NCBI GenBank assembly: GCA_017480185.1
Contig: JAFVBC010000008.1
Coordinates: 114,889 to 178,888, forward strand
From: Bacteroidales bacterium
Lineage (GTDB): Bacteria > Bacteroidota > Bacteroidia > Bacteroidales > P3
Direction of reading: 5' to 3'
DNA: 64,000 nt
A program made the position numbers and the translations under genes. Below are positions 19,101-51,491 of the stretch, piece by piece. Positions within the stretch are counted from its first letter, which is position 1, and each line of letters opens with the position of its first letter. The notes beneath the pieces are model-generated. The model had not been told where the DNA came from. It did no database searches and was given only the letters and a program-made list of their open reading frames with translations.

Positions 19101-22100
19101 TTATCAACGTAGTAAACAATTTTTGCATTGTTTAGATTGCCAAGGCCAAGGTTACTGATAGTTATAGGTAAGGACACGTTTCCACATGAAGCGTAGGTGG
19201 CGGTGTCATACCCATTGGGCCATGAAATACAAGCGTCAATTTGTGGTGTACCAATAGGCGTGATGCGTATGTTAGTACGAGGGCCTTCGCATGCATAGTC
19301 CGTACCTGTTAATCTAATGTCGGGACGTTTATCAGATTGGGGTAGACCATTGCTAACATACCCTAATAGTGATGGGCTCACGCTATTGTTCGTTGCAATG
19401 TATAGAACACTATTTGCCCTTGTATTGTAGGTAGACTGTATGCCAGATGTTATTGCAGCGGTGTTTTGCATTGCCACTTGAACAACAACGTTGCTCGTAC
19501 CATCCCAAATTATAGGTGTGTCAAATTCGTGTTTTACCCACTTATGATTGTTCCTCTTGTAAAATCTCAAGTTGCTTCTGTACATGACTTGACTTACAGG
19601 TTTCCATGAGTTTCTTGCTGCGAAAAAGGTATCGGTAGTAAGCCCCATGTGTATATAGAAGTCTGCGACTGTTATTGAGTCAATTCGAGTGACCACATTC
19701 ACATCACATAGCGAGTCTTGATAGAATGCCACCGCACTAATTGGCCCGGGCTGTAACCCCATGGCAGTCAGTTCGGCAGCTGTGTATATATATTGTTGTT
19801 TGCTTAATTTATTATAGGTTTGAAACGCAGAAGGGTATTCAGTCTTGGTCGTTTTAGTTTGAGTGTTTCCAAGTTGTTTCTCAGACTTAGTCATCGCCAT
19901 ATAACTCACACCAATCGTTCCCTCGGTATATCTGTTTCCTGTTATAAATGTATACCCAGTGTCAGAGACATTTCCGTCGAAATTATACCATAGAGGCATT
20001 GCATTAGAAGGTGCTGTTATTGTTATTGTATCAGATGTGCCATAGTTTATGGTGCGGTTCGTTGTTACTACAGGTGCCGATGGTGTGAAGTTTACAAACG
20101 TAGAGCCCGATGTCGTGTCGTTTTCTGGTCTATGGTCGTCGGCTACGTTCGAAGACCACACTTTGACAAAGAATGTGCTATCGTATGACACATTCATGTT
20201 TAGCTTGGTATTGAACGTATATATTAAACTATCTCCAGCAGCAATGGGTGTAGTTACAAGTTCACTGACTGTAGCCCCACCTCCATTGTAGTTTAGGGTA
20301 TATCTATTCACCGTAACAGTACCGTAGTTATGAACGGTTACGGTTATGTCTTCAAGCCCCAGACCACAGCCTGTGGGCAACTGCAAATTATCAAGTTCAA
20401 GATCGGTACTGGGGGCTCGTGTTACAACCACATGTGCCGTCCCTTTGTCTCCAGGACAGCCATTGCCGGTAAACATCATAATGCTTGAGTCAACCTCGCC
20501 CAGTGTCATTCTTCGTTCGTTCGAGGCTGCAACCCAGTCAGTAGAGTCGCCGTTAAACGCCACGCGAATGAAACCACTCACATACGAACTGGTTATGGGA
20601 ACTCCTTGAGACCCCCATACATAACTTGGAATATTCAAATCCGCCCATTTAAGTGGTAAGGCCGAGCCAGCCGTCACCAAGTCTTTGAATGCTACAGCAT
20701 CCTCAATTACTCCTTCACGGCGGTAAACAAACCCCAAATTATTATTGTCGGCCATAACCAGTGTCGCTCCGGCATATATGGTTTTTTCTGGATTTACTGG
20801 TGTAGACGCGGACGGAACCAAGTATTGTACCGTCATAGACTGCCCAGGTTGTAGAGTTATGCCAGTAAAACCACATATCTTATTGTTGAGCAATGATGAT
20901 GTTGAAATGGTTTGTAGCGTATCGCGAGTAAGATTTGCTGGAGCATCACCCACATTGGTAATTTGGGCAACAACTCTCACACTTGAAGCCAACCAATCGG
21001 GATATGGTTCGGTAAGACCGACGTAGGAAGTACCTACTCCTCTAAACAATTGTATTTGGGTCAGTCTTACAACAGGCACCTGGCGTCTTTGCTCCATGAA
21101 GAAGTCTTGCGTTACGCGCAAAGGATCGGTAATAAGAGTGTCGCCTATATGCATTGGCACAGTGTCTGTTATGTTTCTGTACCAGTACAATGTTGAACGT
21201 TTCTTTGGTGCTGTTGGATCACTATATACGGCCCACATGTTAATGCCAGCGGTGGGAACAATCGTATCTCTTTCAAAGTATTCAACGCTCGACTCTATTC
21301 TTGTGGGTGCAGTGGCATGATAGCGACTGATCACAGCCAAATCCATCGTGTCGTTTGTCTTGTTGGGATCGCTGGTCGAAGAAACCCAAATACGCATAGC
21401 GTAGGTGCTGTCTTTAAGGCCATTGGGAGGCATTGTTAAGCGTATGCCTGTATTTATGTTGACTGTGTCGTCAGAGTTAATTGTCTGCGTTACGGTAGCA
21501 TACTGTTCGGCATTGTTGTTTATTTTGCAGCCTATACGCAGCGTTGTACCACCGTAGGTATAGCGGTTACTACCAGTGTTGGCCACTTGTAAAATCAGTT
21601 CAGTGTTATTCTCTATTGCGCAGTTGTCTTCAAGTGGTTGCAGCAAAGCTATTGGCTCAAAGTCATATTGCAAAGTGGCAAACTCAAATGCTCCAGCACA
21701 TGGCCGAGAGGCATCTCTCGCCGTGCCAAACATATCTGTCGTTACTTGTGAAATAGGAGTGGCCAACCCCTTTATGACGCGAATATATGTCCTCAAATCA
21801 ACGGGAGTTGAGTTTAAGAAACCAGGATTGGCAGATTGTGATGCATCATCTTCGGTTACTGCCGATTGCCATGCCGCCAAGTCGTCAAACGAAACACCTG
21901 TACGGCGGTTTAGAGTATATCCATTTGAGAAGTACAGGTTGTGATTAACCAAATTGCCATTATCGGCTGGGGCCAAGTAATTGAATGCATAGTTCACGTC
22001 GTCCATGCATGCGACTATGTTGTTCATAAAACGGCAGTTGGTCATCGTCCCTCCACCAAATGTAGCAGCTGCCGTACTTGTACGCTCTCGTGCTGTCAGT

Positions 22101-29428: not shown

Positions 29429-30268
29429 ATGAAACCTATCATTGTTGGAACCGACTTTTCCGAAGGATCGTACTTGGCTTTAGAACTGGCTGTTGATGTG
29501 GCCAATCGTATGCAAACCGGTATAGTGCTGGTGTGGGCTAAACGCGAAAAGAAATTGTTTAGCAACGACCAGTTGGATGTTATGACCAACCTGGCCAATG
29601 AGAAATTGCGCGAGCTGTGCGCTAAGTTTCGTCCTGCTATGCGATACGGTGAGATTAGCAGTATGATTGAAAACGGTCGAGTGTCGACGGTTATAAGTAA
29701 TTTGGTGAAACGTCTTGAGGCTCCGTTAGTAGTTGTGGGTACAAACGGTGCATCGGGTTTTGAAAAGTACTGGATGGGTAGTCAGGCTGTGCGCATAGTG
29801 CAAGATAGTCCGTGCCCAGTGCTAACCATCCGTCAGGGATATGACTTCCACAAGAAGTTGGAACGCATAGTGGTACCCATTCGTGTTAATGCCAACTCGC
29901 GTCAGAAAGTGGCTCCTGCTACAGGTGTGGCAAGAATATTTGGCTCATCGCTCCACATACTGGGACTGTATGACATGAAAGATCAGGAGACCTCTTTGCG
30001 CACGTTTGTACAGCAAAGTGAAGAATATGCACAACGGCATGGCGTTGAAGCTGTGAGTGTGGTTCGTCCCTACTCAAACTATTGCGACACACTGCTTGAG
30101 TATGCCGACGAAATATCGGCCGACATGTTGGTGGTGAATACCGAGCAAGACCGCATTATCTCGCAGATGTTTCTGGGTACCAATGCCCAGCAGGTGGTCA
30201 ACCGCTCGCAGATACCAGTGTTGAGCATACACCCTGCCGATTTCATCAACGTTGCTTCAAGGGTGTGA
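29429..30268 (+). CDS. Universal stress protein (tandem UspA domains)
   Basis: 279 aa with two Usp-like halves. N-terminus MKPIIVGTDFSEGSYLALELA. The ATP-binding glycine motif VVGTNGASGFEKYWMGS is present. Confidence 0.8.
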   Translation: MKPIIVGTDFSEGSYLALELAVDVANRMQTGIVLVWAKREKKLFSNDQLDVMTNLANEKLRELCAKFRPAMRYGEISSMIENGRVSTVISNLVKRLEAPLVVVGTNGASGFEKYWMGSQAVRIVQDSPCPVLTIRQGYDFHKKLERIVVPIRVNANSRQKVAPATGVARIFGSSLHILGLYDMKDQETSLRTFVQQSEEYAQRHGVEAVSVVRPYSNYCDTLLEYADEISADMLVVNTEQDRIISQMFLGTNAQQVVNRSQIPVLSIHPADFINVASRV

Positions 30269-31524
30269 GTAGTTCGGACTACGATGTGGTGGTGGTGGGA
30301 GGTGGTGCCAGTGGCATGATGGCTGCGCTGACTGCAGCCGATCGTGGGCGACGGGTGCTGCTGATTGAGAAGATGGATCAAGCAGGGCGTAAGTTGCGCA
30401 TAACAGGCAAGGGTCGTTGCAATCTGACCAACACAGCCTCCTTGCGCGACACGCTGACACATATAGGCTCCGACGCTCGTTTCTTGCGCAATGCCTACGC
30501 TCGTTTTTTCAATCGTGAGTTGATGCTTTTTTTTGAGCAACGCGGTGTTCCGCTGGTCGAAGAAAGGGGTGGACGTGTGTTCCCTGCATCGGGTAAATCT
30601 CTTGATGTGTTTCTTGCCCTGATAAAAAGTCTTGAACAACACGAGCTTGTAACCATAAAGAAACCCGTTGCGGTGCGTCGGGTTGAGACTTTGGCCACAC
30701 CCGACGGCGTGCAGACTACTGGTGTGGTGTTGGCCAACGGTAGCCGAATTGGTTGTCGACAGGTGATATTGGCCACAGGTGGTTTGTCGTACCCTACAAC
30801 AGGCTCTACTGGGGCGGGATTGCGCATGGCAACGGAAACGGGTCATAGGGTGGTGGATACGGTGCCTTCGTTGGTGGCTCTGAAATGTGCAGAACCAGTG
30901 CTGCCCGACCTTGTTGGCTTTCAACTGCGCAATGTGCAGCTACGGGTTACCGACGGCGGGCATCGCGAGTTGTGCCGTCTGTTTGGCGAAATGACTTTCC
31001 TTAACGATGCTTTAGCAGGACCCATAGTGCTCAGTGCAAGTCGATTGGTGTCGAGGAAGTTGCACGACGGCGAGCAGTTGTTGGCAACAATAGACCTAAA
31101 GCCAGCCCTTGATGTTAAACAGCTTGACCGTCGTTTGCTTACCGATATTGATGCCAACGGTAAACGCCTGTTTAACGATGCGTTGCGCATGTGGCTGCCC
31201 GCCGAGTTGGTACCCCTGGCACTGAAGAGTTTGCATATTGAGTACTACAAGAGGCTGCATCAAATCAGTGGCGATGAACGCCGACGTTTGGTTGCGTGGC
31301 TTAAAGCAGTGCCATTTACCCTTGTTGGCACTCGCGATTGGAATGAGGCTATAGTAACACAAGGCGGTGTGGCTCTTGACCAGGTTGATCCTCGTACTAT
31401 GCAGTCGCGGCTGGTAAAGGGTTTGTATTTTGTCGGCGAAATGCTTGACCTTGATGCTGATACCGGAGGTTACAACTTGCAGATTGCTTTCTCGACAGGA
31501 CATGCTGCTGGTGAGGCTGTGTAG
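30265..31524 (+). CDS. NAD(P)/FAD-dependent oxidoreductase, HI0933/BaiN (aminoacetone-oxidase-like) family
   Basis: 419 aa. N-terminal FAD-binding GxGxxG motif DVVVVGGGASGMMAA. The start is GTG at 30265, overlapping the usp stop by 4 nt. Confidence 0.8.
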   Translation: MSSSDYDVVVVGGGASGMMAALTAADRGRRVLLIEKMDQAGRKLRITGKGRCNLTNTASLRDTLTHIGSDARFLRNAYARFFNRELMLFFEQRGVPLVEERGGRVFPASGKSLDVFLALIKSLEQHELVTIKKPVAVRRVETLATPDGVQTTGVVLANGSRIGCRQVILATGGLSYPTTGSTGAGLRMATETGHRVVDTVPSLVALKCAEPVLPDLVGFQLRNVQLRVTDGGHRELCRLFGEMTFLNDALAGPIVLSASRLVSRKLHDGEQLLATIDLKPALDVKQLDRRLLTDIDANGKRLFNDALRMWLPAELVPLALKSLHIEYYKRLHQISGDERRRLVAWLKAVPFTLVGTRDWNEAIVTQGGVALDQVDPRTMQSRLVKGLYFVGEMLDLDADTGGYNLQIAFSTGHAAGEAV

Positions 31525-31684
31525 TTAAAGTGAGTGCGAAAGAATAAAATGGATTGAAGTAAAAATCCAATTACAACATTAAAAGAGGGGAATTTTCGCT
31601 TTTTTTTTGGGGGGTAGTATGCAGATAATCAGGTGTTTATACTGATTGTTGCGATGCCTACTTGTATTTCTTATTACTTATTGT

Positions 31685-31692
31685 TACCTTTG
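31685..31692 (+). promoter_or_regulatory. Candidate -7 promoter box (TACCTTTG, matching TAnnTTTG) for the 31.7-38.7 kb operon
   Basis: Sits about 33 nt upstream of the first in-frame ATG (31725) after a 200-bp non-coding gap. Motif match only. Confidence 0.3.
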
Positions 31693-31724
31693 CCACAGGA
31701 ATAATAACTATTACTTCTTTTCTT

Positions 31725-32993
31725 ATGGCAATTATAGATATGGTAAGATGGACTCCCCAAGAGGGTGAGGCTGTCTATGCTTTTCGTTTTCCAGAGACTA
31801 ACCTCAGCACCTATACACAGTTGGTGGTGTATGAGTCGCAGCAAGCGTTGCTTTTTTCTAAAGGTCAATTGTTGGGTAAGTTCGGTCCGGGTAAACATAC
31901 ACTCAACACCGAAAACCTTCCGCTGTTGCGGTCTTTGTTTGGTATACCTTTTGGTGGCAAAAACCCATTCACGGCCGAGATATGGTTTGTGAACCTGTTG
32001 CAACCAGCTAATCTTGAATGGCAAACGGGTAGCATGTCGGTACATGATGCCGACTATAACACTTTCCTGCCGTTGGAGGCTAAAGGACGTTATGGTGTCC
32101 GTGTAGCCGATGCTGAGAGGTTTCTGACGAAGTTGGTTATCCCCCACGCACAATACACCCAAACCGACCTCACCGACCAGTGCTATGGCGAGTTTGTCAA
32201 CAAGACAAAGTCTGCAGTGGTGGGCTATATGACGCAAAATAGGGTGGGGTATAAACAAGTGTCGGCTCATCTCGATAGTTTGTCGACGTTTTTGAGAAGC
32301 AACTTGACTGAGTTTTGGAATGGCTATGGTATAGAGTTGTCGCAGTTCTATATCACGGAGATTGACATTGACACCACAACAGAAGAGGGTCGCCGAGTGA
32401 AGGCTGCCATTGCCGAGCAAGCCGAAATGAGCATCACAGGCCACACCTGGCAGCAGGGACGCATGTTCGACACCGCCCAGGATGCACTGAGTGGTATGGG
32501 AAATGGTCAAGGGGGTATATTGGGTGGCTTGATGGCCATAGGCATGATGGGAGGTCTGCAAGGTGGCAACAGTGCTCATCTGATGACGCCGAACAACAGT
32601 CAACCCACGTTTGGTCAGCCACAGCAGCAAAATGGTATGGGCGCCCCAGTTGGTGGAGGTCAGATGCCTCGTCCAGCATCGGTGTTCTGCTCTAATTGTG
32701 GAAAGCAGTTCTCTACTACGTCGCAGTTCTGCCCCAATTGTGGCCATAAATACAATCCATGTCCCAATTGTGGTCGCGACAATGATGAAAAAGCAAAACG
32801 CTGCACTGGTTGTGGTACAAGGTTGAATGCCGATAGCGAGCGATGCCCTCATTGTGGGGCCCCTGTGTCACAGGGTAGTACATTCTGTAGCTCGTGTGGC
32901 AAGCCAATGCTCATAGGCGATGTGTGCGAACGTTGTCATGCACCATTGCCGCCGTCGGTGAAGTTTTGTCCCAATTGCGGGCATCGCAGGTAG
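31725..32993 (+). CDS. SPFH/band-7 (flotillin-like, COG4260-type) protein with a Gly/Met-rich linker and four C-terminal zinc ribbons
   Basis: The N-terminal roughly 250 aa, MAIIDMVRWTPQEGEAVYAFRFP...KHTLNTENLPLL..., matches the SPFH family typified by B. subtilis YdjI. A disordered GMGNGQGGILGGLMAIGMMGG region follows. Four CxxC...CxxC ribbons follow: CSNCG..CPNCG, CPNCG..CTGCG, CPHCG..CSSCG and CERCH..CPNCG. The ORF-track start 31662 is TTG, so the ATG at 31725 is preferred. Confidence 0.75.
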   Translation: MAIIDMVRWTPQEGEAVYAFRFPETNLSTYTQLVVYESQQALLFSKGQLLGKFGPGKHTLNTENLPLLRSLFGIPFGGKNPFTAEIWFVNLLQPANLEWQTGSMSVHDADYNTFLPLEAKGRYGVRVADAERFLTKLVIPHAQYTQTDLTDQCYGEFVNKTKSAVVGYMTQNRVGYKQVSAHLDSLSTFLRSNLTEFWNGYGIELSQFYITEIDIDTTTEEGRRVKAAIAEQAEMSITGHTWQQGRMFDTAQDALSGMGNGQGGILGGLMAIGMMGGLQGGNSAHLMTPNNSQPTFGQPQQQNGMGAPVGGGQMPRPASVFCSNCGKQFSTTSQFCPNCGHKYNPCPNCGRDNDEKAKRCTGCGTRLNADSERCPHCGAPVSQGSTFCSSCGKPMLIGDVCERCHAPLPPSVKFCPNCGHRR

Positions 32994-33038
32994 TGCACCT
33001 AAGATATTTAATTCCCACTCAAACTAAACAATAGGTAT

Positions 33039-33737
33039 ATGGCACGTAAAATCTTTTCGTGGGTGGCTTTAGTATTGCTTGAAGCTGTCTTGATTACGTC
33101 GTTTATAATTTTCGGTTCGGCAATGCCAACGGGTGTGCTGGTAACGGATATTGTTGTGTCAACAATAATCTTGGCATTACTCTTCATAGACATTATGATG
33201 CCGTGGCACACTGCCAACGATGGGGCTACGCAGCATCTGGGAGCAATGGGCGTGAGGTGGGTGGTAACAATTGTCTATGCCGTTGCCGCTATTGCTGTTA
33301 TGGTGTTGATGCAAAACTACTCGTTTACCACGCAGTTGCTCGTTCAGGGCGGTTTGCTCGCCGTGATGCTACTTGGCATGGCTGGTGTGTTTTCGAGCAA
33401 GGAAAAAATAGGACAGGTGTATCAACAGGAGTCAACCCAATTGAGCGACCGTGAGCAAGTACGTAGCGCTTGGCACACCACCGTAGAGAAGTTGATTGAT
33501 GGGCAGGGGATGCCAGAAGATGTTATAGAACGAGTAAAGGTTGTTGCTGAACAACTGCGGTATGTGTCGCCTTCGAATAGTGCACAGGCAAAGGAACTGG
33601 ACGAACAGTTGATTGCTTGCGCAGAGTCCCTGCGTAGGATGTCGGTGGACTATGAATTGAACAAAGAACGTGTTGCGGCGTATATAGACAAGGCGATGCG
33701 TCTGATTGAACAACGTAAAAGTGCATTTTCACGCTAA
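33039..33737 (+). CDS. Integral membrane protein (4 predicted TM helices plus a C-terminal helical cytoplasmic domain), function unknown
   Basis: 232 aa. Four hydrophobic segments in the first 125 aa and a charged helical tail. 45 nt downstream of the SPFH gene on the same strand. Confidence 0.55.
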   Translation: MARKIFSWVALVLLEAVLITSFIIFGSAMPTGVLVTDIVVSTIILALLFIDIMMPWHTANDGATQHLGAMGVRWVVTIVYAVAAIAVMVLMQNYSFTTQLLVQGGLLAVMLLGMAGVFSSKEKIGQVYQQESTQLSDREQVRSAWHTTVEKLIDGQGMPEDVIERVKVVAEQLRYVSPSNSAQAKELDEQLIACAESLRRMSVDYELNKERVAAYIDKAMRLIEQRKSAFSR

Positions 33738-33765
33738 TATTATCATAAACTAAAAAAAACAAAGT

Positions 33766-35754
33766 ATGCCCGGAAAGATTTTTCCCGAATCGGCCAATAT
33801 CTATCAAGATAAGGCTAAAGTGCTGTTTAACTATTACAGCCAAATGGCAGAGAAGATAGTGGCAGAAGAAGAACGTATAGAAGGCGAGATCTCCAAGCTT
33901 GAGAGTCTGCGCAAAGAAAAAGAACAGTCGTTGAGTAAACTCCTCATTCCGCTAATTATTCCATTTGCAATACTTATCGTCCCTATCTTTATTTATCTTG
34001 TTAAGAAGAAAAATCTGACAAAGGAAATTGCAGAGATAGACGTTAGACTTGACGAGTTTAGAAAACAACACAAAGAGATATTCCGCGATTATAAAGTTAA
34101 TAAACTTGGTGTCGCTTATGTGCCAGTTGCAGAACAGATAAAATACGAGGACAAAAGCTTCATTGTTGACTATACCAATTCGGTTAAAGAATCGAAGGTT
34201 ACACTTCAAATGTCTAACCAAAATGACCTTCTGGTACAGACTATCAATGAGATTGATAACTTGTCGGCCGATGCTCCTGTTACAGAAAGTTCGAATGAGA
34301 TAGAAACAGTTGAGACCGATGATTACTCGACATCAATTCAACAGATTAACCAACACGACTATTTTGGCAAGTTAGAGCGTTCGCTTCGCACTATAGGTTT
34401 CTGCCTTGACGATCTTGATGTCTCGTCGGTCAGTCTACCGTTGGTTGGTGAGGAGTCGGAATATCTTGGGTTCCTGCGTGAATATGCAACTGATGAAGTC
34501 CCCGAGGGCGCTCCTGTTGTGAAAGTATTCGACAAAGAGAGGTTCGAAAAGAGTATAAACAAGTTCCAAGAGTTGAATCGACTCAAAGACTCGTTGTCAA
34601 ATAAGACAGCCCAGTTTGAAGATGTGTTGAAAAACCTAATGGTGACTATGGCGCATTCAGTTCAGACTATATCGGCATTAAAGGTAGCCTCGGCAGACAA
34701 GGTGATATTCGAGTCAAATAAGTTGCTATATCAAATACTTAAAGCTCCATATAACCACTATTCGCCCCTGCTTGAGCACGATGAGATTGAGCGTATTCGT
34801 CAGGAGAAGTTCGACTTTACTGAAGATGTTCAAGGGTACGTGCCGTTCCAATTGAAGGAAAGTTCGAGGGTGAAATATAATTTGATAACTGGTATGTGGA
34901 CTGCTGAAGATGGTACAACCACGACAGTTCCTTTTGGTGTGCACCAAATATATGAGGAAATTGTGGCACCGGTGGTTCAAAATCTGATGCGCGAAACACG
35001 CATTGAACGCCTTAAAATATACAATCACATCAAAGATCAGAAGATTAGTTATTTGAATAAATGGAATCAAGATACCGATGCTTTCTACCGCGACAATAGG
35101 TCGGAGAGTAATAAGATAATCTCGGCCATGCAAGAAAGTCTACGTGAGTATACAGCTGCATATAACACGCTGGTATCTTTGCAACGTACAGAAGCCAACA
35201 TGGCTAAATCTGGTGGCGAACTTGATTCTACTTTGGTTGAGAGTAGCGACAATGTTGCAGAGACTGCAATGGCATTCGAAACACAGTCGCAGCAGTTCAA
35301 ACAGATTCAAAGCCAGTTTGAGGAGTATATGGATCGCTTGCAAGAGGACATCCGAGAGAAGGGCGAGAAGTTTGGCCATGTGGAATACTACGATGCTAAA
35401 TTGAGAGACGGTCATTCTAACGAAGAAGCTGTGGCTGCAGGTGAGGTAAATCAACTGGATAGCCGTCGCAAACCTTTGGCAGCAGCTAATCCACTTTTGG
35501 CTAAGACTGCCGAGATGTTGCCCACCCCCAATATTGATGAAATTACCTACGAATACCTTGAACTTGACCTTCCATCTCTTGCCAATGATGCATTGAATAG
35601 TCTTGGGGAAAAGGTTGAGGTGCTGCAACCAGAGGAAGAAACTTCTGAGGAGCTCAATGCAGAGGTTGATAATACCAGCGAAGTAAGCGTGGAAAATGAG
35701 GCAGTACAAGCAAACGACGATGAGGCTGCAGACGACACAGAGTCGGAGCAATAA
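33766..35754 (+). CDS. 662-aa protein with N-terminal coiled coil, one TM helix and a large acidic-tailed domain, function unknown
   Basis: Residues 1-55 are coiled-coil-like (EEERIEGEISKLESLRKEKEQ). The TM segment is LLIPLIIPFAILIVPIFIYLV. The protein ends in an acidic tail EEETSEELNAEVDNTSE...DDTESEQ. No P-loop or other catalytic motif was found. AT-rich codon usage. Confidence 0.55.
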   Translation: MPGKIFPESANIYQDKAKVLFNYYSQMAEKIVAEEERIEGEISKLESLRKEKEQSLSKLLIPLIIPFAILIVPIFIYLVKKKNLTKEIAEIDVRLDEFRKQHKEIFRDYKVNKLGVAYVPVAEQIKYEDKSFIVDYTNSVKESKVTLQMSNQNDLLVQTINEIDNLSADAPVTESSNEIETVETDDYSTSIQQINQHDYFGKLERSLRTIGFCLDDLDVSSVSLPLVGEESEYLGFLREYATDEVPEGAPVVKVFDKERFEKSINKFQELNRLKDSLSNKTAQFEDVLKNLMVTMAHSVQTISALKVASADKVIFESNKLLYQILKAPYNHYSPLLEHDEIERIRQEKFDFTEDVQGYVPFQLKESSRVKYNLITGMWTAEDGTTTTVPFGVHQIYEEIVAPVVQNLMRETRIERLKIYNHIKDQKISYLNKWNQDTDAFYRDNRSESNKIISAMQESLREYTAAYNTLVSLQRTEANMAKSGGELDSTLVESSDNVAETAMAFETQSQQFKQIQSQFEEYMDRLQEDIREKGEKFGHVEYYDAKLRDGHSNEEAVAAGEVNQLDSRRKPLAAANPLLAKTAEMLPTPNIDEITYEYLELDLPSLANDALNSLGEKVEVLQPEEETSEELNAEVDNTSEVSVENEAVQANDDEAADDTESEQ

Positions 35755-35788
35755 AGAATGTCAAAGTAGAAAGAAAGGACATTAAACT

Positions 35789-36700
35789 ATGGCAAGTATA
35801 GATTGTGTTGTCGACACCCAGCCGATGGCGCGTGAGATAGACAAAGTGTCTCACAATGTTAATCAGACCAAGAATGCCGTCATAGCAATGCAGATGGCGG
35901 TTATACAGGCAGAAAAAGAGGCCTCCGACCATGTGTGTAGCAAGGTTAACCTCGGTTTCTACACCATGATTCGCTCTCAAATATCGCAGAAGATGGCCAA
36001 ATTGCAAAGCGATGTAGACTCATTGCTTATGCAGTTGTCTTATCAACAAAAGCAATTGATGGCTATCAAAATGCGTATGGAACGCGATTATAACATGTTG
36101 CTTGTTAGGTACAACAAGCTTTTCAATGGGCTCAATCAAAACCTAAAGCAGCGTGTATACGAACTCGACCGTCCCACAATGGATTTTGCAGAAAACCAAG
36201 TGGAGCACATTACCAATCGTACAAAACTCATGACTGCTACCGTACCCTTGGGACAAACCGAGTCGGTCAGCCAAAGTCAGAAGATACTGGCTTCTAATGC
36301 CAAGTATCAAAGCAAGCGAGTCATCGATTCCATGACACGTTTCCTTTCCGATTTCAACGAACAGCGCCAACTCACTTCTACCATTCTGCTGGAAGGGAAA
36401 GCTCAGAATGGAGAGTGGTCGGTACCTGTTATTGTCATGCAGTCAAACGTCGATAAAAATGGCACATTGGTAGACCGCGTGTTGGTGAACGAGAATGCAA
36501 TGAGCACATCGATGCAACAGGCCGTTCGCAACACCTTCTCTGCTACCTCCGATGGTTTAGAGTGGAAGACAGCAACCCAGCCCGACAAAGAAACATCCAA
36601 CGAGTTTGCCAAACTTGTGGAGCGGTCCAATTTGAGCGACCGTGTAAAAAATCTTGTGTCGGAGATGTATCGTAACAACAATTATGCAACGCTTAAATAG
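35789..36700 (+). CDS. Coiled-coil cytoplasmic protein, paralogue 1 of a tandem pair, function unknown
   Basis: 303 aa. Alignable over its full length with the next gene, for example GFYTMIRSQISQ...MERDYN...LDRPTMDF against GFFKTVRSDISQ...MEVDYN...LDAPAFNF. No signal peptide or TM. Confidence 0.55.
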   Translation: MASIDCVVDTQPMAREIDKVSHNVNQTKNAVIAMQMAVIQAEKEASDHVCSKVNLGFYTMIRSQISQKMAKLQSDVDSLLMQLSYQQKQLMAIKMRMERDYNMLLVRYNKLFNGLNQNLKQRVYELDRPTMDFAENQVEHITNRTKLMTATVPLGQTESVSQSQKILASNAKYQSKRVIDSMTRFLSDFNEQRQLTSTILLEGKAQNGEWSVPVIVMQSNVDKNGTLVDRVLVNENAMSTSMQQAVRNTFSATSDGLEWKTATQPDKETSNEFAKLVERSNLSDRVKNLVSEMYRNNNYATLK

Positions 36701-36709
36701 CTCCCAGTC

Positions 36710-37720
36710 ATGAGTTACACAAGATCAGTTACAAAGACCATTGCAGTGCATTACTCGGGCTCGGTGAGTTATCCTGCTTCGCAAAATGGTGGCACTGTAG
36801 GATACAGTGGCACTGCCTACGAAAGCGTAACCGTGAATGTACATGTCGACACCCAATCTTTTGATGCCTCGACCGATCAGTGCGCTGGCAAGGTAGGGGT
36901 GCTGACAGGCGCAGTCGTTGCAACAAACGAAGCCCAAGTACTTTCCATCCGCGAAAACTCCAAAAAGGTGGGGCAGACCCTCATCAACGGTTTTTTCAAA
37001 ACGGTTCGCTCCGACATCAGTCAGCAAATAAACGAGCTGAAGAACATCGTTGAAGCAACTTTGCTCAAACTGCAGAGCGATGCCAAACGTTGCAACGAGA
37101 TGCAGCGTCAGATGGAGGTCGACTACAACCGCAAGTGTGTGCAATACATGCACATCTTTGACGATTTAGACAAAGAATTGCACAACCGTATAGTCAATCT
37201 TGATGCTCCCGCTTTCAATTTTGGTCGCGATGTCGACACCGTAAATTCGCGTCTTACCACAACCGATATGGTACCCGTGGTGGCTGTCTCTGGTGGCGAG
37301 AATATGCGTTTGCAAACGCAACTCTCGGTTACTGCCACCAAGCAGCGCGCTTACGATGCCATGGGCAAAGCGCGCCAATTCCTGCAAGTACAGAAAAATG
37401 CAGCCGATGCCATTGCCACCAACACCATTGCCGATGCCCCTCAGGGGCAGATACACCTACCTGTGTGCTACATCGAAGTGGTGAATGAACAAGACTGCCT
37501 TGAACGAAGTATAGAATGTTGCGACAAAATCGATGGCAACGCGCGTAAGATGTTGAGCGATCAGTTGCATAAAACCCAGTTTCCCAAAGCCAAAGAGGCA
37601 GAAAGTAACAAGGTACTCATGTATTTCAAAGAGGCTGTTGCACAGCGCCTCTCGGGAGGTAACGAACACGACGAACGTGTGTGCGAACAAATCATGAAAT
37701 TGTATAACAACAATCAATAG
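36710..37720 (+). CDS. Coiled-coil cytoplasmic protein, paralogue 2 with a roughly 40-aa N-terminal extension, function unknown
   Basis: 336 aa. Starts 9 nt after paralogue 1. Conserved blocks VDTQ, GF(Y/F)..(I/V)RS.ISQ and ME.DYN are shared with the upstream gene. Confidence 0.55.
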   Translation: MSYTRSVTKTIAVHYSGSVSYPASQNGGTVGYSGTAYESVTVNVHVDTQSFDASTDQCAGKVGVLTGAVVATNEAQVLSIRENSKKVGQTLINGFFKTVRSDISQQINELKNIVEATLLKLQSDAKRCNEMQRQMEVDYNRKCVQYMHIFDDLDKELHNRIVNLDAPAFNFGRDVDTVNSRLTTTDMVPVVAVSGGENMRLQTQLSVTATKQRAYDAMGKARQFLQVQKNAADAIATNTIADAPQGQIHLPVCYIEVVNEQDCLERSIECCDKIDGNARKMLSDQLHKTQFPKAKEAESNKVLMYFKEAVAQRLSGGNEHDERVCEQIMKLYNNNQ

Positions 37721-37727
37721 TAAGAAA

Positions 37728-38702
37728 ATGAAAGAACTTAAAGAAATAAGATTCAACGATAACAATGTGCTTTTGAAAGACAACCTAGTCAAGGGTCCAA
37801 TCATACCCGAACAGGTCTCTGAACTGACGCGCGACATCACCATCCAAGCCGACACCATTGTCGAGGGTGCAATTTATGCCCACCGACTTGAGGTGCAGAA
37901 TGGCGAGTGTGTGGTTAAGGGAGCAGTGTTTACCCAACTTGAGCTATATGTCAATGCCGATGCAAAGGGCAGTGTAACCTTTGAAAAGAGTGTGGGCTCG
38001 GTTGATAGCATTGTGTCGCGTGCATCTGGTTGCACCCTCTCGTTCATGTCCGACATCAACGCTCACAGTGTAACCCTCTACAACGCCTATGTGGCGGGTA
38101 GCATCTATGCCGATGAGGTGGTTCTTGAAAACTGTGTGGTTGTTGGAGGTGTGTTTGCATCACAGGGACTCGACATCAACAACTGTATTTTGGGCACATT
38201 TAACGCTCCCACAGTAAACATGTCTGGGTCAATCTTCCTGCTTTTGCCCTCGGCATTTTCGATAGAGAAAGCAGTTGTCGACCCCTCATGCAAGTTTTAT
38301 AACCTCAGTTTGGCCGACCTTGGGGCACTGTACAAAGGGTTGCCACAGGCCGAAAATTCGGGCAAGGTGAAACTTGATGTCGATGCCGACGAGGTAAAAA
38401 CAACCCTTTCTAACGACGAAATACAGAAAACCATTCGTAGCTATACCGTGGTTGGGAAAGTGTTGGCAGCAGATTTAATCGACACCGATAAGTTCCAAAA
38501 CCACTTCCTTATTGCAGCAGCATCGCTTGGCCCGCAGCTGTTGAAAACCTACGACTTGGGGACTGATAAGGGTGGCACTGCAGCAATGCTCACACCCGAG
38601 CGTATTCGCACCTTCTTTTTCGACATTCTTCATGGCAAGATAGAAGTGCAAGACATTGACGGACACTTTAGTATTAGCGATATAGCCCAACGCTACAAGT
38701 AG
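37728..38702 (+). CDS. Beta-helix-like repeat protein (Toastrack/bactofilin-like fold suspected), function unknown
   Basis: 324 aa. The central 200 aa show a short periodic pattern of alternating hydrophobics and Gly/Asn/Asp turns (ITIQADTIVEGAIYAHRLEVQNGECVVKGAVFTQLELYVNADAKGSVTF...). That pattern is typical of single-stranded beta-helices. Last gene before the strong terminator. Confidence 0.5.
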   Translation: MKELKEIRFNDNNVLLKDNLVKGPIIPEQVSELTRDITIQADTIVEGAIYAHRLEVQNGECVVKGAVFTQLELYVNADAKGSVTFEKSVGSVDSIVSRASGCTLSFMSDINAHSVTLYNAYVAGSIYADEVVLENCVVVGGVFASQGLDINNCILGTFNAPTVNMSGSIFLLLPSAFSIEKAVVDPSCKFYNLSLADLGALYKGLPQAENSGKVKLDVDADEVKTTLSNDEIQKTIRSYTVVGKVLAADLIDTDKFQNHFLIAAASLGPQLLKTYDLGTDKGGTAAMLTPERIRTFFFDILHGKIEVQDIDGHFSISDIAQRYK

Positions 38703-38724
38703 TCGTTCTTCATGTCGTGTCTAA

Positions 38725-38765
38725 ACGGGTGCGGTGGCAAAGATGCCACCGCACCCGTTTTTTAT
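38725..38765 (+). terminator. Strong rho-independent terminator closing the 31.7-38.7 kb operon
   Basis: ACGGGTGCGGTGGCA-aaga-TGCCACCGCACCCGT, a perfect 15-bp stem, followed by TTTTTTATTG. The ORF-track start (GTG 38734) of the next gene lies inside this hairpin and is therefore unlikely. Confidence 0.7.
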
Positions 38766-38811: not shown

Positions 38812-40704
38812 ATGAACACGGCCAACTATTTCGCACAGTTGCGCAACCTTGTCGACAGCGAGCACCAGACCGAGACGCAAGAATTCGTGCAGCAGATTGC
38901 TAACCTCTGCCCCGACGGCACTGGCAAGATAGCACGCCCATCGTGTCGCTACCCTGTCCGTCTGATAGATGAGCGTCGCAACGCAATGAATCAATTTGTG
39001 TTGGGGGTGCTTTTTGATGCCGATAGCGACGATATTGAGCCCGATTTTGAACCAGGCAAGGCGGTTGTGTTTTTCTACTTTAATGGTGCTGAAGCCGTGG
39101 TTGCCACTGTAGCGGTGCAGGTTGAACGTGCCGATGCCAATGGTCTCGCTGTTATTGTTGCTCCCTCGGTGATGCAGCAACTGCAATCCTTGTCGGCACG
39201 CCATTTGCTTGGTATTCATCTGGCAGTCGACGACACTTCTTACCGTGTCATGCGCGATGCCCTGTCGGTAGCATCACAGGCCGACCGCAAAAGCTTCGTT
39301 GCTTTGCGCAACGTGCTTATTGGTGCCGTAGCGCCGACTCGTTCGCCACAACCCACACTTTCTTTTTCTTGGCTCAATGCTGCGCAGAACGCCGCCATAC
39401 AGATGGTGGCCGAGGCGCACGAGGTGGCCATTGTGCATGGACCTCCAGGCACGGGCAAAACCACAACACTGGTTGAGGCCATCATAGAGACACTTCGCCG
39501 CGAGCCTCAAGTGCTGGTGTGTGCCCCAAGTAATGCCGCTGTCGACTGGATTAGCGAGCAACTCATGCGACGTGGTGTGGCTGTGTTGCGGTTGGGAAAC
39601 CCTCTACGTGTGAGCGACACCATGCTGGAATGCAGCTACGAGCAACGTTATGTGGCTCATCCTGATTATCATGAGCTTTGGAATATTCGTCGTCGGCTGC
39701 ATGAGCAAAACGATGGCGAAACCGCACAACGGCTGAGACATCGACAGACCGAACTTGAGATAAAAATAGAGAACGACCTTTACGACCAGGCGCGAGTGGT
39801 GAGTGCCACCCTTGCTGGTGCCGCTATGCGTCTGCCCACTGGAAGGCGATTTGCCACACTTTTTATCGACGAGGCGGCTCAAGCCCTCGAACCCCTCTGC
39901 TGGGCAGCCCTGCTGCGCGCCGACCGTGTGGTCATGGGGGGCGACCATCAGCAGTTGCCACCTACGGTGAAAAGCATCAGTGCCGCCCGACAGGGATTGT
40001 CGACAACCCTAATGCAAAAGGTGGCTCAGTTGTGGCCCAATAGCGTATCTCTGCTCGACACCCAATATCGCATGCATGCCGACATTATGCAGTTTTCGTC
40101 GCAGTGGTTCTATGGCGGCCTACTGAAAGCACATCCGTCGGTAGCCGACCGCTTGGTTTCGCCAATCGACACCCCTCTGGTTTGGGTCGACACCAGCCGT
40201 TTGGGACTGGGCGAGCGCACAGGTGGGCATACGTCGCTGAGCAACATGGGCGAGGCTCGCTTGGTGATTCACACTCTGCGCGACTATATTGAGAGTCTTA
40301 CCCCCACCCTTATCGAAAGTCAACGCACCGATTTTGGCATCATCACCCCCTACCGCAGTCAGGCACGACTGTTGCGACGATTGCTGAAAATGCAACACTT
40401 CTTTCGTCGTTTGAAAGGCCTTATCACGGTGGGGACGGTCGACGGCTTCCAGGGGCGAGAGCGCGACGTTATAATCATCAGCCTGGTGCGCGACAACGAC
40501 AGCCACACCATTGGCTTTATGCGCGATTTGCGACGCATGAACGTGGCTATGACAAGGGCACGCATGAAACTTATCATCGTTGGCAACGCCACCACACTTG
40601 CCTCCAACAGGTTTTATGCTCGGTTGGCACAATATGTTGAAAAACAAGGAAAATTTATAACACTTACACCCTATGAAGACAGTCAAAAAGAAAACCCAGC
40701 TTGA
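38812..40704 (+). CDS. SF1B helicase of the Upf1/IGHMBP2 (DNA2/NAM7) family
   Basis: Motif I is VHGPPGTGKTTTL, motif II is FIDEAAQ and motif III is GDHQQLPP. Motif IV is YRMH, motif V is TVDGFQGRERDVIIIS and motif VI is VAMTRARMKLIIVGN. A roughly 200-aa N-terminal beta-barrel-like domain precedes the helicase. The first ATG after the terminator is at 38812 (MNTANYF...). Confidence 0.8.
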   Translation: MNTANYFAQLRNLVDSEHQTETQEFVQQIANLCPDGTGKIARPSCRYPVRLIDERRNAMNQFVLGVLFDADSDDIEPDFEPGKAVVFFYFNGAEAVVATVAVQVERADANGLAVIVAPSVMQQLQSLSARHLLGIHLAVDDTSYRVMRDALSVASQADRKSFVALRNVLIGAVAPTRSPQPTLSFSWLNAAQNAAIQMVAEAHEVAIVHGPPGTGKTTTLVEAIIETLRREPQVLVCAPSNAAVDWISEQLMRRGVAVLRLGNPLRVSDTMLECSYEQRYVAHPDYHELWNIRRRLHEQNDGETAQRLRHRQTELEIKIENDLYDQARVVSATLAGAAMRLPTGRRFATLFIDEAAQALEPLCWAALLRADRVVMGGDHQQLPPTVKSISAARQGLSTTLMQKVAQLWPNSVSLLDTQYRMHADIMQFSSQWFYGGLLKAHPSVADRLVSPIDTPLVWVDTSRLGLGERTGGHTSLSNMGEARLVIHTLRDYIESLTPTLIESQRTDFGIITPYRSQARLLRRLLKMQHFFRRLKGLITVGTVDGFQGRERDVIIISLVRDNDSHTIGFMRDLRRMNVAMTRARMKLIIVGNATTLASNRFYARLAQYVEKQGKFITLTPYEDSQKENPA

Positions 40705-48854: not shown

Positions 48855-50519
48855 ATGGGTGCAACAAACTGCCCGGAGACCCCGAGGCAAAAGATGATTA
48901 CGATGATGTACCTTGTGTACACCGCCCTGCTGGCTCTGAACGTCTCTGCAGCTGTCATTGATGGATTTAAGAACGTGGGTAACGTTATGCAGTTGTCGAA
49001 TGAGACTGTACAGGCAAAGGTGGACGATACTTTTGAAAACTTTAAGAGGGCTTATGATAACAGTCCAGATAAGGTGAGGGAGAAGTATCAGAATGCACAG
49101 ACGGTACAGGCATTGACCAACGATTTGATAAGTTATATTGATAGTATTGAGTATACTTATATCGCTAAAACAACTAAAGGCGCCAAGGGCGAATTCCCTC
49201 CAAAATCTGGTAATAAATTTGATATCAAGTTTATTGATGCCAACGGTAATTATCTGCTTGACAGTGTGAAGAAGGTGATGGATATGTCCGGTTTCTCGTG
49301 GTTCAATGATAAGCAGTTGGAAAACAATAATGATCCTACCAGTTTCTTTTATGGGAAAGGCGATGTGGTTAATGGTCATGCTGTTGGATTGAAAGAAAGG
49401 GTGATTGAGTATAAGGCACAGATACGAAAGATTCTTGGTGCAGACTCGTTGCATGTGAAGTTGGGCCTAAATGTTGAGGATACTTTCTATAGCAAGGACG
49501 GAAAAGAAGAATCGTGGGAGAAGCATCATTTCAATGAGGTGGTTTCTGGTGCAGCACTTGTGACCTTAACTCAGATGAAGACGGAGGCTATGAATGCCGA
49601 GTATGACGCTGTGAACTTTCTATATAAACAGGTAAGTTCTGGCGACCACTCGTTTGATAAACTGACACTTATCGGAAGAGCAAAGAGTGGATATATTCTG
49701 CAAGGTGGAACGTATGAGGCCGATTTTTACGTTGGTGCTTACGACTCGAAACAGGCTTTTACAGGAACGGTGAATGGTCAGACATTGAGTAATACGGACT
49801 CTGGTTCGTTGCATTACAGGACGGTTTGTAACTCTGTTGGTCTGCAAAAGGTGAATGTGTCAGCCACCGTGAAAGGACCGAATGGAGATGAAACAATAAC
49901 CTATTCGGATAATTACTACGTAGCTAAACCAGCGGCTGTCGTATCTTTGGACAATATGCAGGTGCTTTATGCAGGTATTGAAAATCCTATTACGGTGTCG
50001 GTCCCTGGCGTAGATAGCCGCAACCTCAAGGTTTATATAAAAGAGGGAAAGGGGAAACTGGCAAATGGTGATGGTGAAGGAAAGTATTTGGTTACCCCCG
50101 ATGTTGGTGGAAAGAAGATGGTGATTGGCGTGGATGCAATGATAGACAAGAAGCAAACTAACATGGGAGACAATGTGTATAAGGTTAGGGATATTCCTGA
50201 TCCTACGATTACGGTTGGTCAGTTTGCTAATGGGGCAAATGTAGCAAAGAGCGATTTCAGTGATGGTATGCAGGTACGTGCGAGTTTCCAGAAAGGATTT
50301 GAGTTTAAGCTCTCCAAAGGTGCGATGAGTATTAGATCAATAGAGGTAAGCGTGGGTAATAAGAGCCCTGTTACTGTAAATGGAGCAGCTTTCTCCCCCG
50401 ATATTATTTCAGCTATTAAAAAGGCTAACCGTGGTGATAAACTGTATGTTACTGCCCATGTAAAGATGCCTTCGGGTACTACGAGTGTTGCATACTGCGT
50501 ATTCACAATAAAGAAGTAA
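48855..50519 (+). CDS. porM: T9SS/gliding motility protein PorM/GldM
   Basis: The N-terminus MGATNCPETPRQKMITMMYLVYTALLALNVS matches the conserved GldM start (PRQKMI.LMYLV...ALN.S). 554 aa with a single N-terminal TM and a periplasmic multi-domain body. Confidence 0.8.
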   Translation: MGATNCPETPRQKMITMMYLVYTALLALNVSAAVIDGFKNVGNVMQLSNETVQAKVDDTFENFKRAYDNSPDKVREKYQNAQTVQALTNDLISYIDSIEYTYIAKTTKGAKGEFPPKSGNKFDIKFIDANGNYLLDSVKKVMDMSGFSWFNDKQLENNNDPTSFFYGKGDVVNGHAVGLKERVIEYKAQIRKILGADSLHVKLGLNVEDTFYSKDGKEESWEKHHFNEVVSGAALVTLTQMKTEAMNAEYDAVNFLYKQVSSGDHSFDKLTLIGRAKSGYILQGGTYEADFYVGAYDSKQAFTGTVNGQTLSNTDSGSLHYRTVCNSVGLQKVNVSATVKGPNGDETITYSDNYYVAKPAAVVSLDNMQVLYAGIENPITVSVPGVDSRNLKVYIKEGKGKLANGDGEGKYLVTPDVGGKKMVIGVDAMIDKKQTNMGDNVYKVRDIPDPTITVGQFANGANVAKSDFSDGMQVRASFQKGFEFKLSKGAMSIRSIEVSVGNKSPVTVNGAAFSPDIISAIKKANRGDKLYVTAHVKMPSGTTSVAYCVFTIKK

Positions 50520-50542
50520 AAACAATAGTAATACATATCGTT

Positions 50543-51421
50543 ATGAAGAAGTTAATGTTAGGTTTGTTTGCCATTCTTTCTTTGGGTTATGGTGTCAATG
50601 CTCAAAGTATTGTTGATGCAGAAGATGGGACTAATCCAAACGATTTTTACCAGACTGGCATCGTTGTTGGCAAAAGGGCCATGCCTTATCCTTACTTGCG
50701 TGAGAGCGATGTAGTATGGAAAATGCTTGTGTGGCGCAAGATAGACTTCAATGAAAGTTTTAACCAATTCTTTTATTTCCCTGTTGATCAGGACAAGAAC
50801 ACGCAGGGGCGTATCAGCCTTGTAAATCTTATAATCAATGCTGCCAAGAATGGTAGTTTTGAGGTGTATGAGGACGATGATATGAAAGTGCCTCAAGACT
50901 TGGAAAAAGCAATTGCAGGCTTGAACGGACAACGCAAGACAACCGAGTATGGTGAGGAGGATGAGTTTGGTGATGTGGAGGAAAAAGAGGTTATTTCACC
51001 CGACCCATTTGATGCAGGCTCTGTAAAAACAGCCATGCTCAAAGAGTGCTGGTATATTGATAAGCAAGACACACGTCAGAAAGTGAGAATCGTCGGACTT
51101 GCTTTCAGTTATAGAAAAAACATGGTGCGTGCTGGTCAGGAAGAGGAAACCCAAGCCGAGTCGTTTTGGATACCGATGAATCACATGACTGTGCGACAAG
51201 TGTTGGTGAATGCTAATGCTTTTGACGAAAACAATGACGTAGCTGAGCGTTCGTACGACGATGTGTTTATTCAAAGGTACTTCGATAGTTATATAACCAG
51301 AAAGTCAAATAAGTTCAACCGTCGTATAGATGAATATCTGACAGGAGAAGATGCGATAGTGCAGTCGCAAATGATAGAAGAAGAGTTATTCAACATTGAG
51401 TCGGATATGTGGGAATATTGA
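50543..51421 (+). CDS. porN: T9SS/gliding motility protein PorN/GldN
   Basis: 292 aa. Signal peptide MKKLMLGLFAILSLGYGVNAQ. GldN-family blocks include VVWKMLVWRKID..E.FNQFFYFP and KQDTRQ. Operon position after porM. Confidence 0.75.
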   Translation: MKKLMLGLFAILSLGYGVNAQSIVDAEDGTNPNDFYQTGIVVGKRAMPYPYLRESDVVWKMLVWRKIDFNESFNQFFYFPVDQDKNTQGRISLVNLIINAAKNGSFEVYEDDDMKVPQDLEKAIAGLNGQRKTTEYGEEDEFGDVEEKEVISPDPFDAGSVKTAMLKECWYIDKQDTRQKVRIVGLAFSYRKNMVRAGQEEETQAESFWIPMNHMTVRQVLVNANAFDENNDVAERSYDDVFIQRYFDSYITRKSNKFNRRIDEYLTGEDAIVQSQMIEEELFNIESDMWEY

Positions 51422-51446
51422 TGTGTGAAACTTTGAAACCAAACAA

Positions 51447-51487
51447 AGAGAGTTAAGAGAGAGATACTCTTAACTCTCTTCTATTTT
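51447..51487 (+). terminator. Rho-independent terminator between porN and its paralogue
   Basis: AGAGAGTTAAGAG-agagata-CTCTTAACTCTCT, a perfect 13-bp stem, followed by TCTATTTTAATT. Confidence 0.55.
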
Positions 51488-51491
51488 AATT

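Follow-up and report, generated by a model that had tools for sequence, protein, structure and literature searches.

A six-gene operon, numbered g1–g6 from 5′ to 3′, was analysed in a 64,000-nucleotide (nt) stretch of a Bacteroidales bacterium genome (contig JAFVBC010000008.1, positions 114,889 to 178,888 of the forward strand). This whole stretch is called the window here, and the coordinates below are positions in it. We regard the locus as a SamGHI-like, SPFH-centred scaffold operon with a bactofilin-like protein, and not as a Psp, Toastrack or known defence system. The operon is real, widespread and testable in cultured species, and no striking mechanism can be demonstrated for it yet. Our tentative reading, to which we give a probability of roughly 0.45, is that by analogy it may encode a heteromeric, enzyme-free scaffold at the cytoplasmic membrane, built like PspA–SamGHI with different polymer partners. 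No description of the operon, nor of any module combining an SPFH protein with a bactofilin, was found in the literature searched.

Operon organization and transcription signals

All six genes lie on the plus strand: g1 (31725–32993, 422 amino acids (aa) counted from the ATG), g2 (33039–33737, 232 aa), g3 (33766–35754, 662 aa), g4 (35789–36700, 303 aa), g5 (36710–37720, 336 aa) and g6 (37728–38702, 324 aa). An earlier description of this DNA, made from its letters alone and referred to below as the sequence-only reading, had given six plus-strand genes at 31725–38702 separated by gaps of 45, 28, 34, 9 and 7 nt, and open reading frame analysis reproduced all of these values. Across about 75 loci, the median gaps within the operon were 4–24 nt.

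The 200-bp leader (31525–31724, plus strand) begins directly after the upstream gene, which ends at 31524. As had been described, it contains a TAnnTTTG promoter box (TACCTTTG, 31685–31692, plus strand), that is, a −7 box of the Bacteroidota type, located 32 nt upstream of the g1 ATG; its position is conserved across orthologous loci. Taken alone, the motif occurs in the window at chance frequency (51 matches in a pattern scan versus 42 ± 6 expected). However, of 69 orthologous loci, 45 have it in the 150 nt preceding g1, versus 0.067 expected per 150 nt, while before g2–g6 it was seen in only 0–2 of about 75 loci. At the other end, an intrinsic terminator (38723–38760, plus strand) separates the operon from a helicase gene. 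The perfect hairpin reported earlier is indeed present, and its stem proved longer than the 15 bp given for it (17 bp, with a 4-nt loop and a T run). A strong hairpin 3′ of g6 is common among the orthologues: the 90 nt there fold to −20 kcal/mol or lower in 72% of 76 loci. Since the box is conserved before g1 only and the hairpin after g6, there is good comparative evidence that the six genes form a single predicted transcription unit with one promoter and one terminator. A search of the leader against Rfam returned no known RNA family, and a riboswitch or other known RNA in it was rejected.

Conservation across Bacteroidota

The locus set was obtained by a g5 profile scan, limited by two peptide patterns, over 185,579 species-representative prokaryotic genomes (one per species). 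The scan recovered 112 relatives, and 80 loci were retained. Synteny was assessed by tblastn with the six operon products and four flanking products in 81 loci, namely the 80 fetched ones and L001, the window's own contig, a public metagenome contig carrying an identical copy of the region. Genes g4, g5 and g6 were present in all 81 loci, g3 in 76, and g1 and g2 in 70 each; most of the missing genes were accounted for by contig ends. Gene order and strand were the same in all loci, and about 70 of the 80 fetched Bacteroidota loci had all six genes together in this order. The flanking genes for the Usp, flavoprotein, helicase and DUF5020 proteins were detected in L001 only and were absent from the 80 other loci. 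The compact operon first recognised from the sequence thus held up in comparison, its six genes being co-conserved across the phylum amid unrelated flanks. Even the two most divergent g3 relatives (L086 and L087), obtained in a search of 1.84 billion representatives, lie within the same operon.

Among Bacteroidales, the carriers include Alistipes, Muribaculaceae, Prevotellaceae, Barnesiella, Paludibacter, Tannerella and Dysgonomonas; further carriers are Capnocytophaga, other Flavobacteriales, Chitinophagales, Cytophagaceae and Marinilabiliales. They comprise rumen, gut, oral, termite-gut and environmental Bacteroidota. The g3 product of the window is 100% identical to a protein from a "Bacteroidales bacterium" metagenome-assembled genome (MAG). 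Because cultured carriers exist (Capnocytophaga sputigena, C. granulosa, Dysgonomonas termitidis, Parabacteroides sp. AD58 and Labilibaculum filiforme), the question of what the operon does is directly testable. A complete operon was also observed in a MAG labelled "Clostridiales bacterium" (L053, JAMPBP010000007.1). In the g3 tree its protein clusters with those of Bacteroides, Muribaculaceae and Alistipes MAGs, and this locus is probably a binning error rather than an occurrence in Firmicutes.

Three loci with enough upstream sequence (6–10 kb) are missing g1 (L007, L055 and L056), and g2 is likewise undetectable in two of them (L007 and L056). Because such loci exist, the invariant core is g3–g6, and the SPFH gene is not strictly obligatory beside it. 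In L087, there is no g2 gene between g1 and g3.

The SPFH protein g1 and the bactofilin-like protein g6

The product of g1 matches Pfam Band_7_1 (PF13421) over residues 20–219 with an E-value of 1.8e-31 (109.9 bits, cut-off 24), and classical Band_7 only weakly (1.5e-06). A linker of low complexity, rich in Gly, Gln and Met, leads from the SPFH domain to four zinc ribbons of the CxxC...CxxC type at residues ~317–420 (DZR, 3.5e-27; Zn_Ribbon_1 in four stretches). The protein has 17 Cys residues and, by hydropathy, no hydrophobic segment, and its orthologues, present in 70 of the 81 loci, are 50–73% identical. The sequence-only reading had named a COG4260-type SPFH protein with four zinc ribbons as the leading gene product, and these matches agree with it. 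[quoted passage not shown] With its Band_7_1 domain, absent anchor, linker and C-terminal zinc fingers, g1 is by predicted architecture a soluble SPFH protein of the SamI/YdjI type (COG4260). YdjI depends on the membrane proteins of its operon, YdjG and YdjH, and tethers the polymer PspA to the membrane (PMC8581546; bioRxiv 10.64898/2026.02.06.704340). In about 70 loci g1 is trailed by g2, with four predicted transmembrane (TM) segments, and g3, with one; by analogy, these two proteins may recruit it.

In g6, the N-terminal half (residues ~25–160) is predicted to form a bactofilin-like β-helix. The C-terminal ~160 aa make up a further conserved domain, of no assigned type, that is missing from classical bactofilins. 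The similarity to the bactofilin family (PF04519, COG1664) is remote and reproducible: 24 of 30 g6 orthologues match PF04519 at E ≤ 0.1, the best at 8e-5, and Bactofilin A (2n3d) was the sole match of the g6 family profile in the PDB (E = 0.1, residues 58–135). Furthermore, many orthologues have been named "cytoskeletal protein CcmA (bactofilin family)" by JGI. Mean column identity in the alignment of orthologues is 75%. We therefore consider g6 to be a predicted remote bactofilin relative. A Toastrack or a bactofilin fold had been suggested earlier; the evidence above favours the second, and a Pfam search with 30 orthologues (E ≤ 0.1) brought up no Toastrack-type (DUF4097-type) family, so the first was dropped.

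The predicted membrane proteins g2 and g3

Hydropathy analysis of g2 gave four hydrophobic segments (residues ~9–27, 32–50, 72–90 and 100–118), in agreement with its earlier description as a 4-TM protein. The C-terminal part is a helical tail of about 115 aa, in which the orthologue alignment shows a conserved RY.SPSN motif. This is the least conserved member of the operon (22–39% identity), and no Pfam family recurred among 31 orthologues. A relationship to Halogen_Hydrol/XpaC was rejected, as only one of the 31 members gave such a match.

The g3 protein starts with a charged helix of about 58 aa, followed by one TM segment (59–79). The next ~530 aa are rich in helices and strongly conserved, and the protein ends in an acidic tail whose length varies; Asp and Glu make up 18.6% of all residues. 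It had been described as a 662-aa TM and coiled-coil protein with a poly-acidic tail, of which the length, the single TM segment and the acidic tail were borne out. Identity is 54–77%, with about 190 invariant columns among 29 orthologues. Nearly all of its 2481 database relatives are named "hypothetical", and no match to g3 was found in Pfam, NCBIfam, PADLOC, PHROGs or the PDB. When the g3 profile was run against the 1.84 billion representatives, the 150 matches listed contained only the family itself (about 25 full-length clusters and fragments) and no bridge to a known superfamily. One orthologue is called "TerB-C domain-containing" in UniRef. However, TerB_C, TerB and TelA were absent from the families listed (top 25 of 32) among the Pfam matches of 30 orthologues, and the window protein itself had no match, so that a Ter/TelA module was rejected; most likely the name reflects the acidic tail. 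Comparison of g2, g3 and g4 by hhalign gave no internal relationship.

The coiled-coil paralogues g4 and g5

The view that g4 and g5 are tandem paralogous coiled-coil proteins was upheld. They align with each other by BLASTP (2e-18) and by hhalign (probability 100, E = 1.6e-43, 293 columns) and can be classed from this alignment as full-length paralogues. The g4 protein consists of a coiled coil and a C-terminal alpha/beta region, and it is without the highly conserved N-terminal β-hairpin of g5 (~46 aa, strands 3–20 and 29–46). After the hairpin, the g5 model has long helices (66–184 and 191–238) and then a small alpha/beta C-terminal domain. The hairpin (window positions 36710–36850) shows alternating hydrophobic and Ser/Thr/Tyr residues with a repeated YSG motif (HYSGS / YSGT), and it carries the conserved charged residues R5, K9 and E38. 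Strand addition to the g6 β-helix, oligomerisation or membrane contact are possible roles for it.

When all PDB sequences were searched with the family profiles of g4 and g5 (hmmsearch, E ≤ 10), there was no meaningful match, and for g4 none at all. The Foldseek search with the g5 model returned only generic coiled coils; its top matches were stems of β-barrel pore-forming toxins, which were non-significant (E ≥ 0.48). Given these scores and the conserved charges of the hairpin, g5 was not accepted as a β-barrel pore former.

Taken together, g2–g5 had no match in Pfam, NCBIfam, PADLOC, PHROG or the PDB, so that four of the six products cannot be placed in a described family, in line with their earlier labelling as uncharacterised. 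In addition, Pfam, NCBIfam and PADLOC revealed no catalytic or NTPase domain in any of g1–g6.

Base composition and distribution

The sequence-only reading considered the segment more A/T-rich than its flanks and consistent with acquired DNA. This is true of g3, which alone is low (GC 0.425, GC at third codon positions (GC3) 0.437), and not of the cluster as a whole: the operon has 46.3% GC versus 48.0% for the window, 33% of 7-kb windows have no more GC than the operon, and the GC3 of g1, g2, g4, g5 and g6 (0.52–0.55) equals that of the flanks. For these reasons the composition gives no sign of foreign origin, and this idea was abandoned. The lowest GC content in the window (0.40–0.42), below that of the operon, was seen at 17001–20000 and 49001–52000.

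No g3 relative was found on plasmids, phages or IMG/VR contigs, and a plasmid or phage origin was rejected. The distribution across Bacteroidota looks patchy (112 relatives in the pattern-limited scan of 185,579 genomes), and the g3 tree disagrees with taxonomy, placing Muribaculaceae in three clades and Alistipes and Flavobacteriales in two each.

Comparison with known scaffold systems

Like pspA-ydjGHI (pspA-samGHI) of B. subtilis, the operon encodes an anchor-free Band_7_1 SPFH protein that also has a stretch of low complexity and, at the C-terminus, zinc finger(s); its gene stands together with those of integral membrane proteins and cytoplasmic proteins of helical or polymer type. Moreover, zinc-ribbon membrane proteins encoded beside the Bacteroidota operon recall SamG/YdjG, itself a zinc-ribbon membrane protein. 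It has been shown experimentally in B. subtilis that the membrane proteins SamG and SamH recruit the soluble SPFH protein SamI, which in turn recruits the polymer PspA (PMC8581546; bioRxiv 10.64898/2026.02.06.704340). In contrast to that system, no PspA/ESCRT-III homologue is detectable in the Bacteroidota operon, four zinc ribbons are fused to the SPFH protein, the SPFH gene is first and not last, and three extra cytoplasmic components are present (the g4/g5 pair and the bactofilin-like g6). The module was also found in Bacteroidota only.

Bactofilins polymerise at the membrane and position enzymes of the envelope, as in the Caulobacter BacA/B–PbpC, Helicobacter CcmA–Csd and Hyphomonas BacA–LmdC scaffolds. 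The consistent, weak matches of the N-terminal half of g6 resemble these scaffolds, and the YkuD L,D-transpeptidases occasionally found at the operon echo bactofilin–enzyme pairs. Unlike bactofilins, g6 scores below the family threshold, has the additional C-terminal domain and shares a fixed operon with an SPFH protein, an arrangement undescribed for any bactofilin in the literature searched. With the flotillin/stomatin–NfeD and HflK/C-type assemblies, the operon shares an SPFH protein with dedicated membrane partners and an expected function in membrane scaffolding. However, g1 belongs to the Band_7_1 branch and has no TM or hairpin anchor, and no NfeD or FtsH-type partner is present.

Proposed role and alternative explanations

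The scaffold proposal starts from established features: how the operon is built and conserved, which domains are assigned to g1 and g6, the g4/g5 paralogy and the absence of catalytic domains. From these we infer binding partners, membrane topology, polymerisation and a physiological role. First, g2, with four TM segments, and g3, with one TM segment and a large conserved domain, would dock the soluble g1 at the membrane. Then, g1 would couple these membrane proteins to the cytoplasmic polymer or coiled-coil proteins, that is, the g4/g5 pair and the bactofilin-like g6. The resulting assembly could organise, sense or stabilise a patch of the envelope, and it may position periplasmic peptidoglycan enzymes.

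Accessory genes provide the only functional hint: because some loci add L,D-transpeptidases and zinc-ribbon membrane proteins, they suggest a role in the cell envelope. In a Draconibacterium sp. MAG (L049, 4076–5632), two extra genes on the same strand are inserted between g2 and g3 and encode a zinc-ribbon–TM–SH3_3 protein and a TM-anchored YkuD L,D-transpeptidase. Related YkuD genes (43–51% identical) stand beside the operon in L056 (6023–6508, minus strand) and L073 (13370–14059, plus strand); by our rough estimate, chance alone would place about 0.3 YkuD neighbours in 75 loci. Membrane proteins with a zinc-ribbon/DUF805 or GYF_2 domain directly flank the operon in L016, L017, L056, L073 and L087. 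In L056, the zinc-ribbon/DUF805 protein comes directly after g6. The GYF_2-domain proteins adjoin the operon in L087 (7286–8731) and L073 (11994–13346), and one of them also has TPR and a double zinc ribbon.

Several observations weigh against the scaffold proposal. The g6 protein of the window matches PF04519 with E = 0.011 and 16.4 bits, under the cut-off of 27.9, and g4 and g5 show no detectable relation to any known polymer. The AlphaFold2 model of g3, built from 35 homologues, has a predicted local distance difference test (pLDDT) score of 49, too poor for a fold search, and the charges flanking its TM segment weakly favour a cytoplasmic C-terminal domain, leaving the topology ambiguous. 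Furthermore, g2 and g3 are likened to YdjG and YdjH by layout, not homology. The YkuD association concerns three of about 75 loci, and the copies in D. termitidis lie amid transposases, BREX and restriction-type genes. Finally, because the g3 tree conflicts with taxonomy and the distribution looks patchy, the data suggest an accessory module that would move between Bacteroidota lineages.

SPFH proteins and bactofilins are widespread scaffolds with partly understood roles in bacteria, and this operon fixes both in one unit. The assignment of a role would explain how an SPFH protein of the SamI type operates without PspA. It would also annotate a sizeable part of the Bacteroidota "dark matter", as the families of g2, g3 and g4/g5 have thousands of database members, nearly all "hypothetical". 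A bolder form of the idea, which we hold to be possible though rather doubtful, is a Bacteroidota-specific membrane cytoskeleton in which the SPFH protein is coupled to a bactofilin-like filament via the new-fold g3 and g4/g5, or else a new enzyme-free membrane defence. If true, such a cytoskeleton would pattern the envelope, for example in local peptidoglycan cross-linking, vesicle formation or membrane repair, without an ESCRT-III or nucleotide-driven component.

The main rival to the scaffold is a role in defence. The operon could be a new anti-phage system of the abortive-infection type acting at the membrane, in which g1 and the membrane proteins sense infection and g4, g5 and g6 damage the membrane or block phage assembly, with an effector route running, for example, via the conserved g5 β-hairpin; we consider this unlikely. 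A patchy, horizontally moving distribution is also typical of defence systems, and both the small number of relatives and the disagreement of the g3 tree with taxonomy fit horizontal spread. The genomic context, moreover, differs in every lineage, and multi-gene composition from proteins of no known function would suit such a system. The D. termitidis genome (contig BAAHYD010000002.1) has the operon twice, and the two g3 proteins are identical. One copy (L084) is flanked by a BrxL / Ser-Thr kinase / zinc-ribbon / FGE-sulfatase / PP2C cluster and by a PLD-SNF2 helicase with an MmeI-type methylase, and the other (L085) is interrupted by an IS110-family transposase between g4 and g5. On the other hand, scoring against PADLOC-DB 2.0.0, which had been recommended as a check for defence, yielded nothing better than E = 0.003 for g1–g6, and no model of a defence-system component was matched. 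The 108 nearest-neighbour genes from about 60 loci contain 144 Pfam families, none of them more than three times. These neighbours are mostly housekeeping genes (FeoB, PEPCK, LpxK and acyl-CoA dehydrogenase), with isolated defence-type PADLOC matches and two integrases. No copy was located on plasmids, phages or IMG/VR contigs, and the proteins have no nuclease, NTPase, protease or other effector domain. The toxin stems topping the Foldseek results for g5 would speak for an effector, but those matches are non-significant, and the charges of the hairpin are unlike those of a membrane-spanning stem. The accessory genes, too, point to peptidoglycan and not to nucleic acids.

A divergent Psp/ESCRT-III membrane-repair module, with g4 and g5 as far-diverged PspA/Vipp1 proteins recruited by the SPFH protein, is much less probable still. 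The two paralogues are largely helical, with helices of more than 100 residues in the model, and helical polymers encoded as tandem paralogues occur in other ESCRT-III systems. The architecture of g1 is that of YdjI/SamI, whose known client is PspA (PMC8581546). However, hhalign against PspA (4WHE) and Vipp1 (sll0617) gave probabilities of only 0.1% for g4 and 1.2% for g5, the PDB hmmsearch with both profiles returned no PspA, Vipp1 or ESCRT-III chain at E ≤ 10, and there was no PspA_IM30 or Snf7 match in Pfam. The C-terminal alpha/beta domain of g4 and g5 and the N-terminal β-hairpin of g5 are also foreign to the ESCRT-III fold. Based on family profiles and fold, the Psp/ESCRT-III identity of g4 and g5 is thus largely refuted at the sequence level. 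The sequence-only reading had offered a divergent Psp/flotillin-type module or something new; the second half is the better one, and "Psp-type" should therefore be understood as an architectural analogy only and not as membership.

That six unrelated genes without a common function merely happen to lie in a row on one strand can practically be dismissed, given that six families keep the same order with gaps of a few nt in about 70 loci from several Bacteroidota orders with unrelated flanks, that the divergent members retain this order and that the promoter motif precedes g1 only.

Neighbouring genes

The gene downstream of the terminator (38812–40704, plus strand) encodes a helicase of the IGHMBP2 family (TIGR00376, 391.5 bits versus the cut-off of 348.9), which also matches the MkoA helicase models of PADLOC (7e-87). 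Defence islands with SPFH and helicase genes had been brought up earlier for this locus. The helicase stands behind the terminator and beside the operon in none of the 80 other loci, so a link to the operon was rejected; since it is never conserved there, its defence-like score is attributed to the shared superfamily 1 (SF1) helicase core. On the upstream side, a tandem Usp-domain protein and an HI0933-like flavoprotein are encoded at 29429–31524 (plus strand) with a 4-nt overlap. This pair looks like a separate two-gene unit and is conserved only in the identical metagenome contig, L001.

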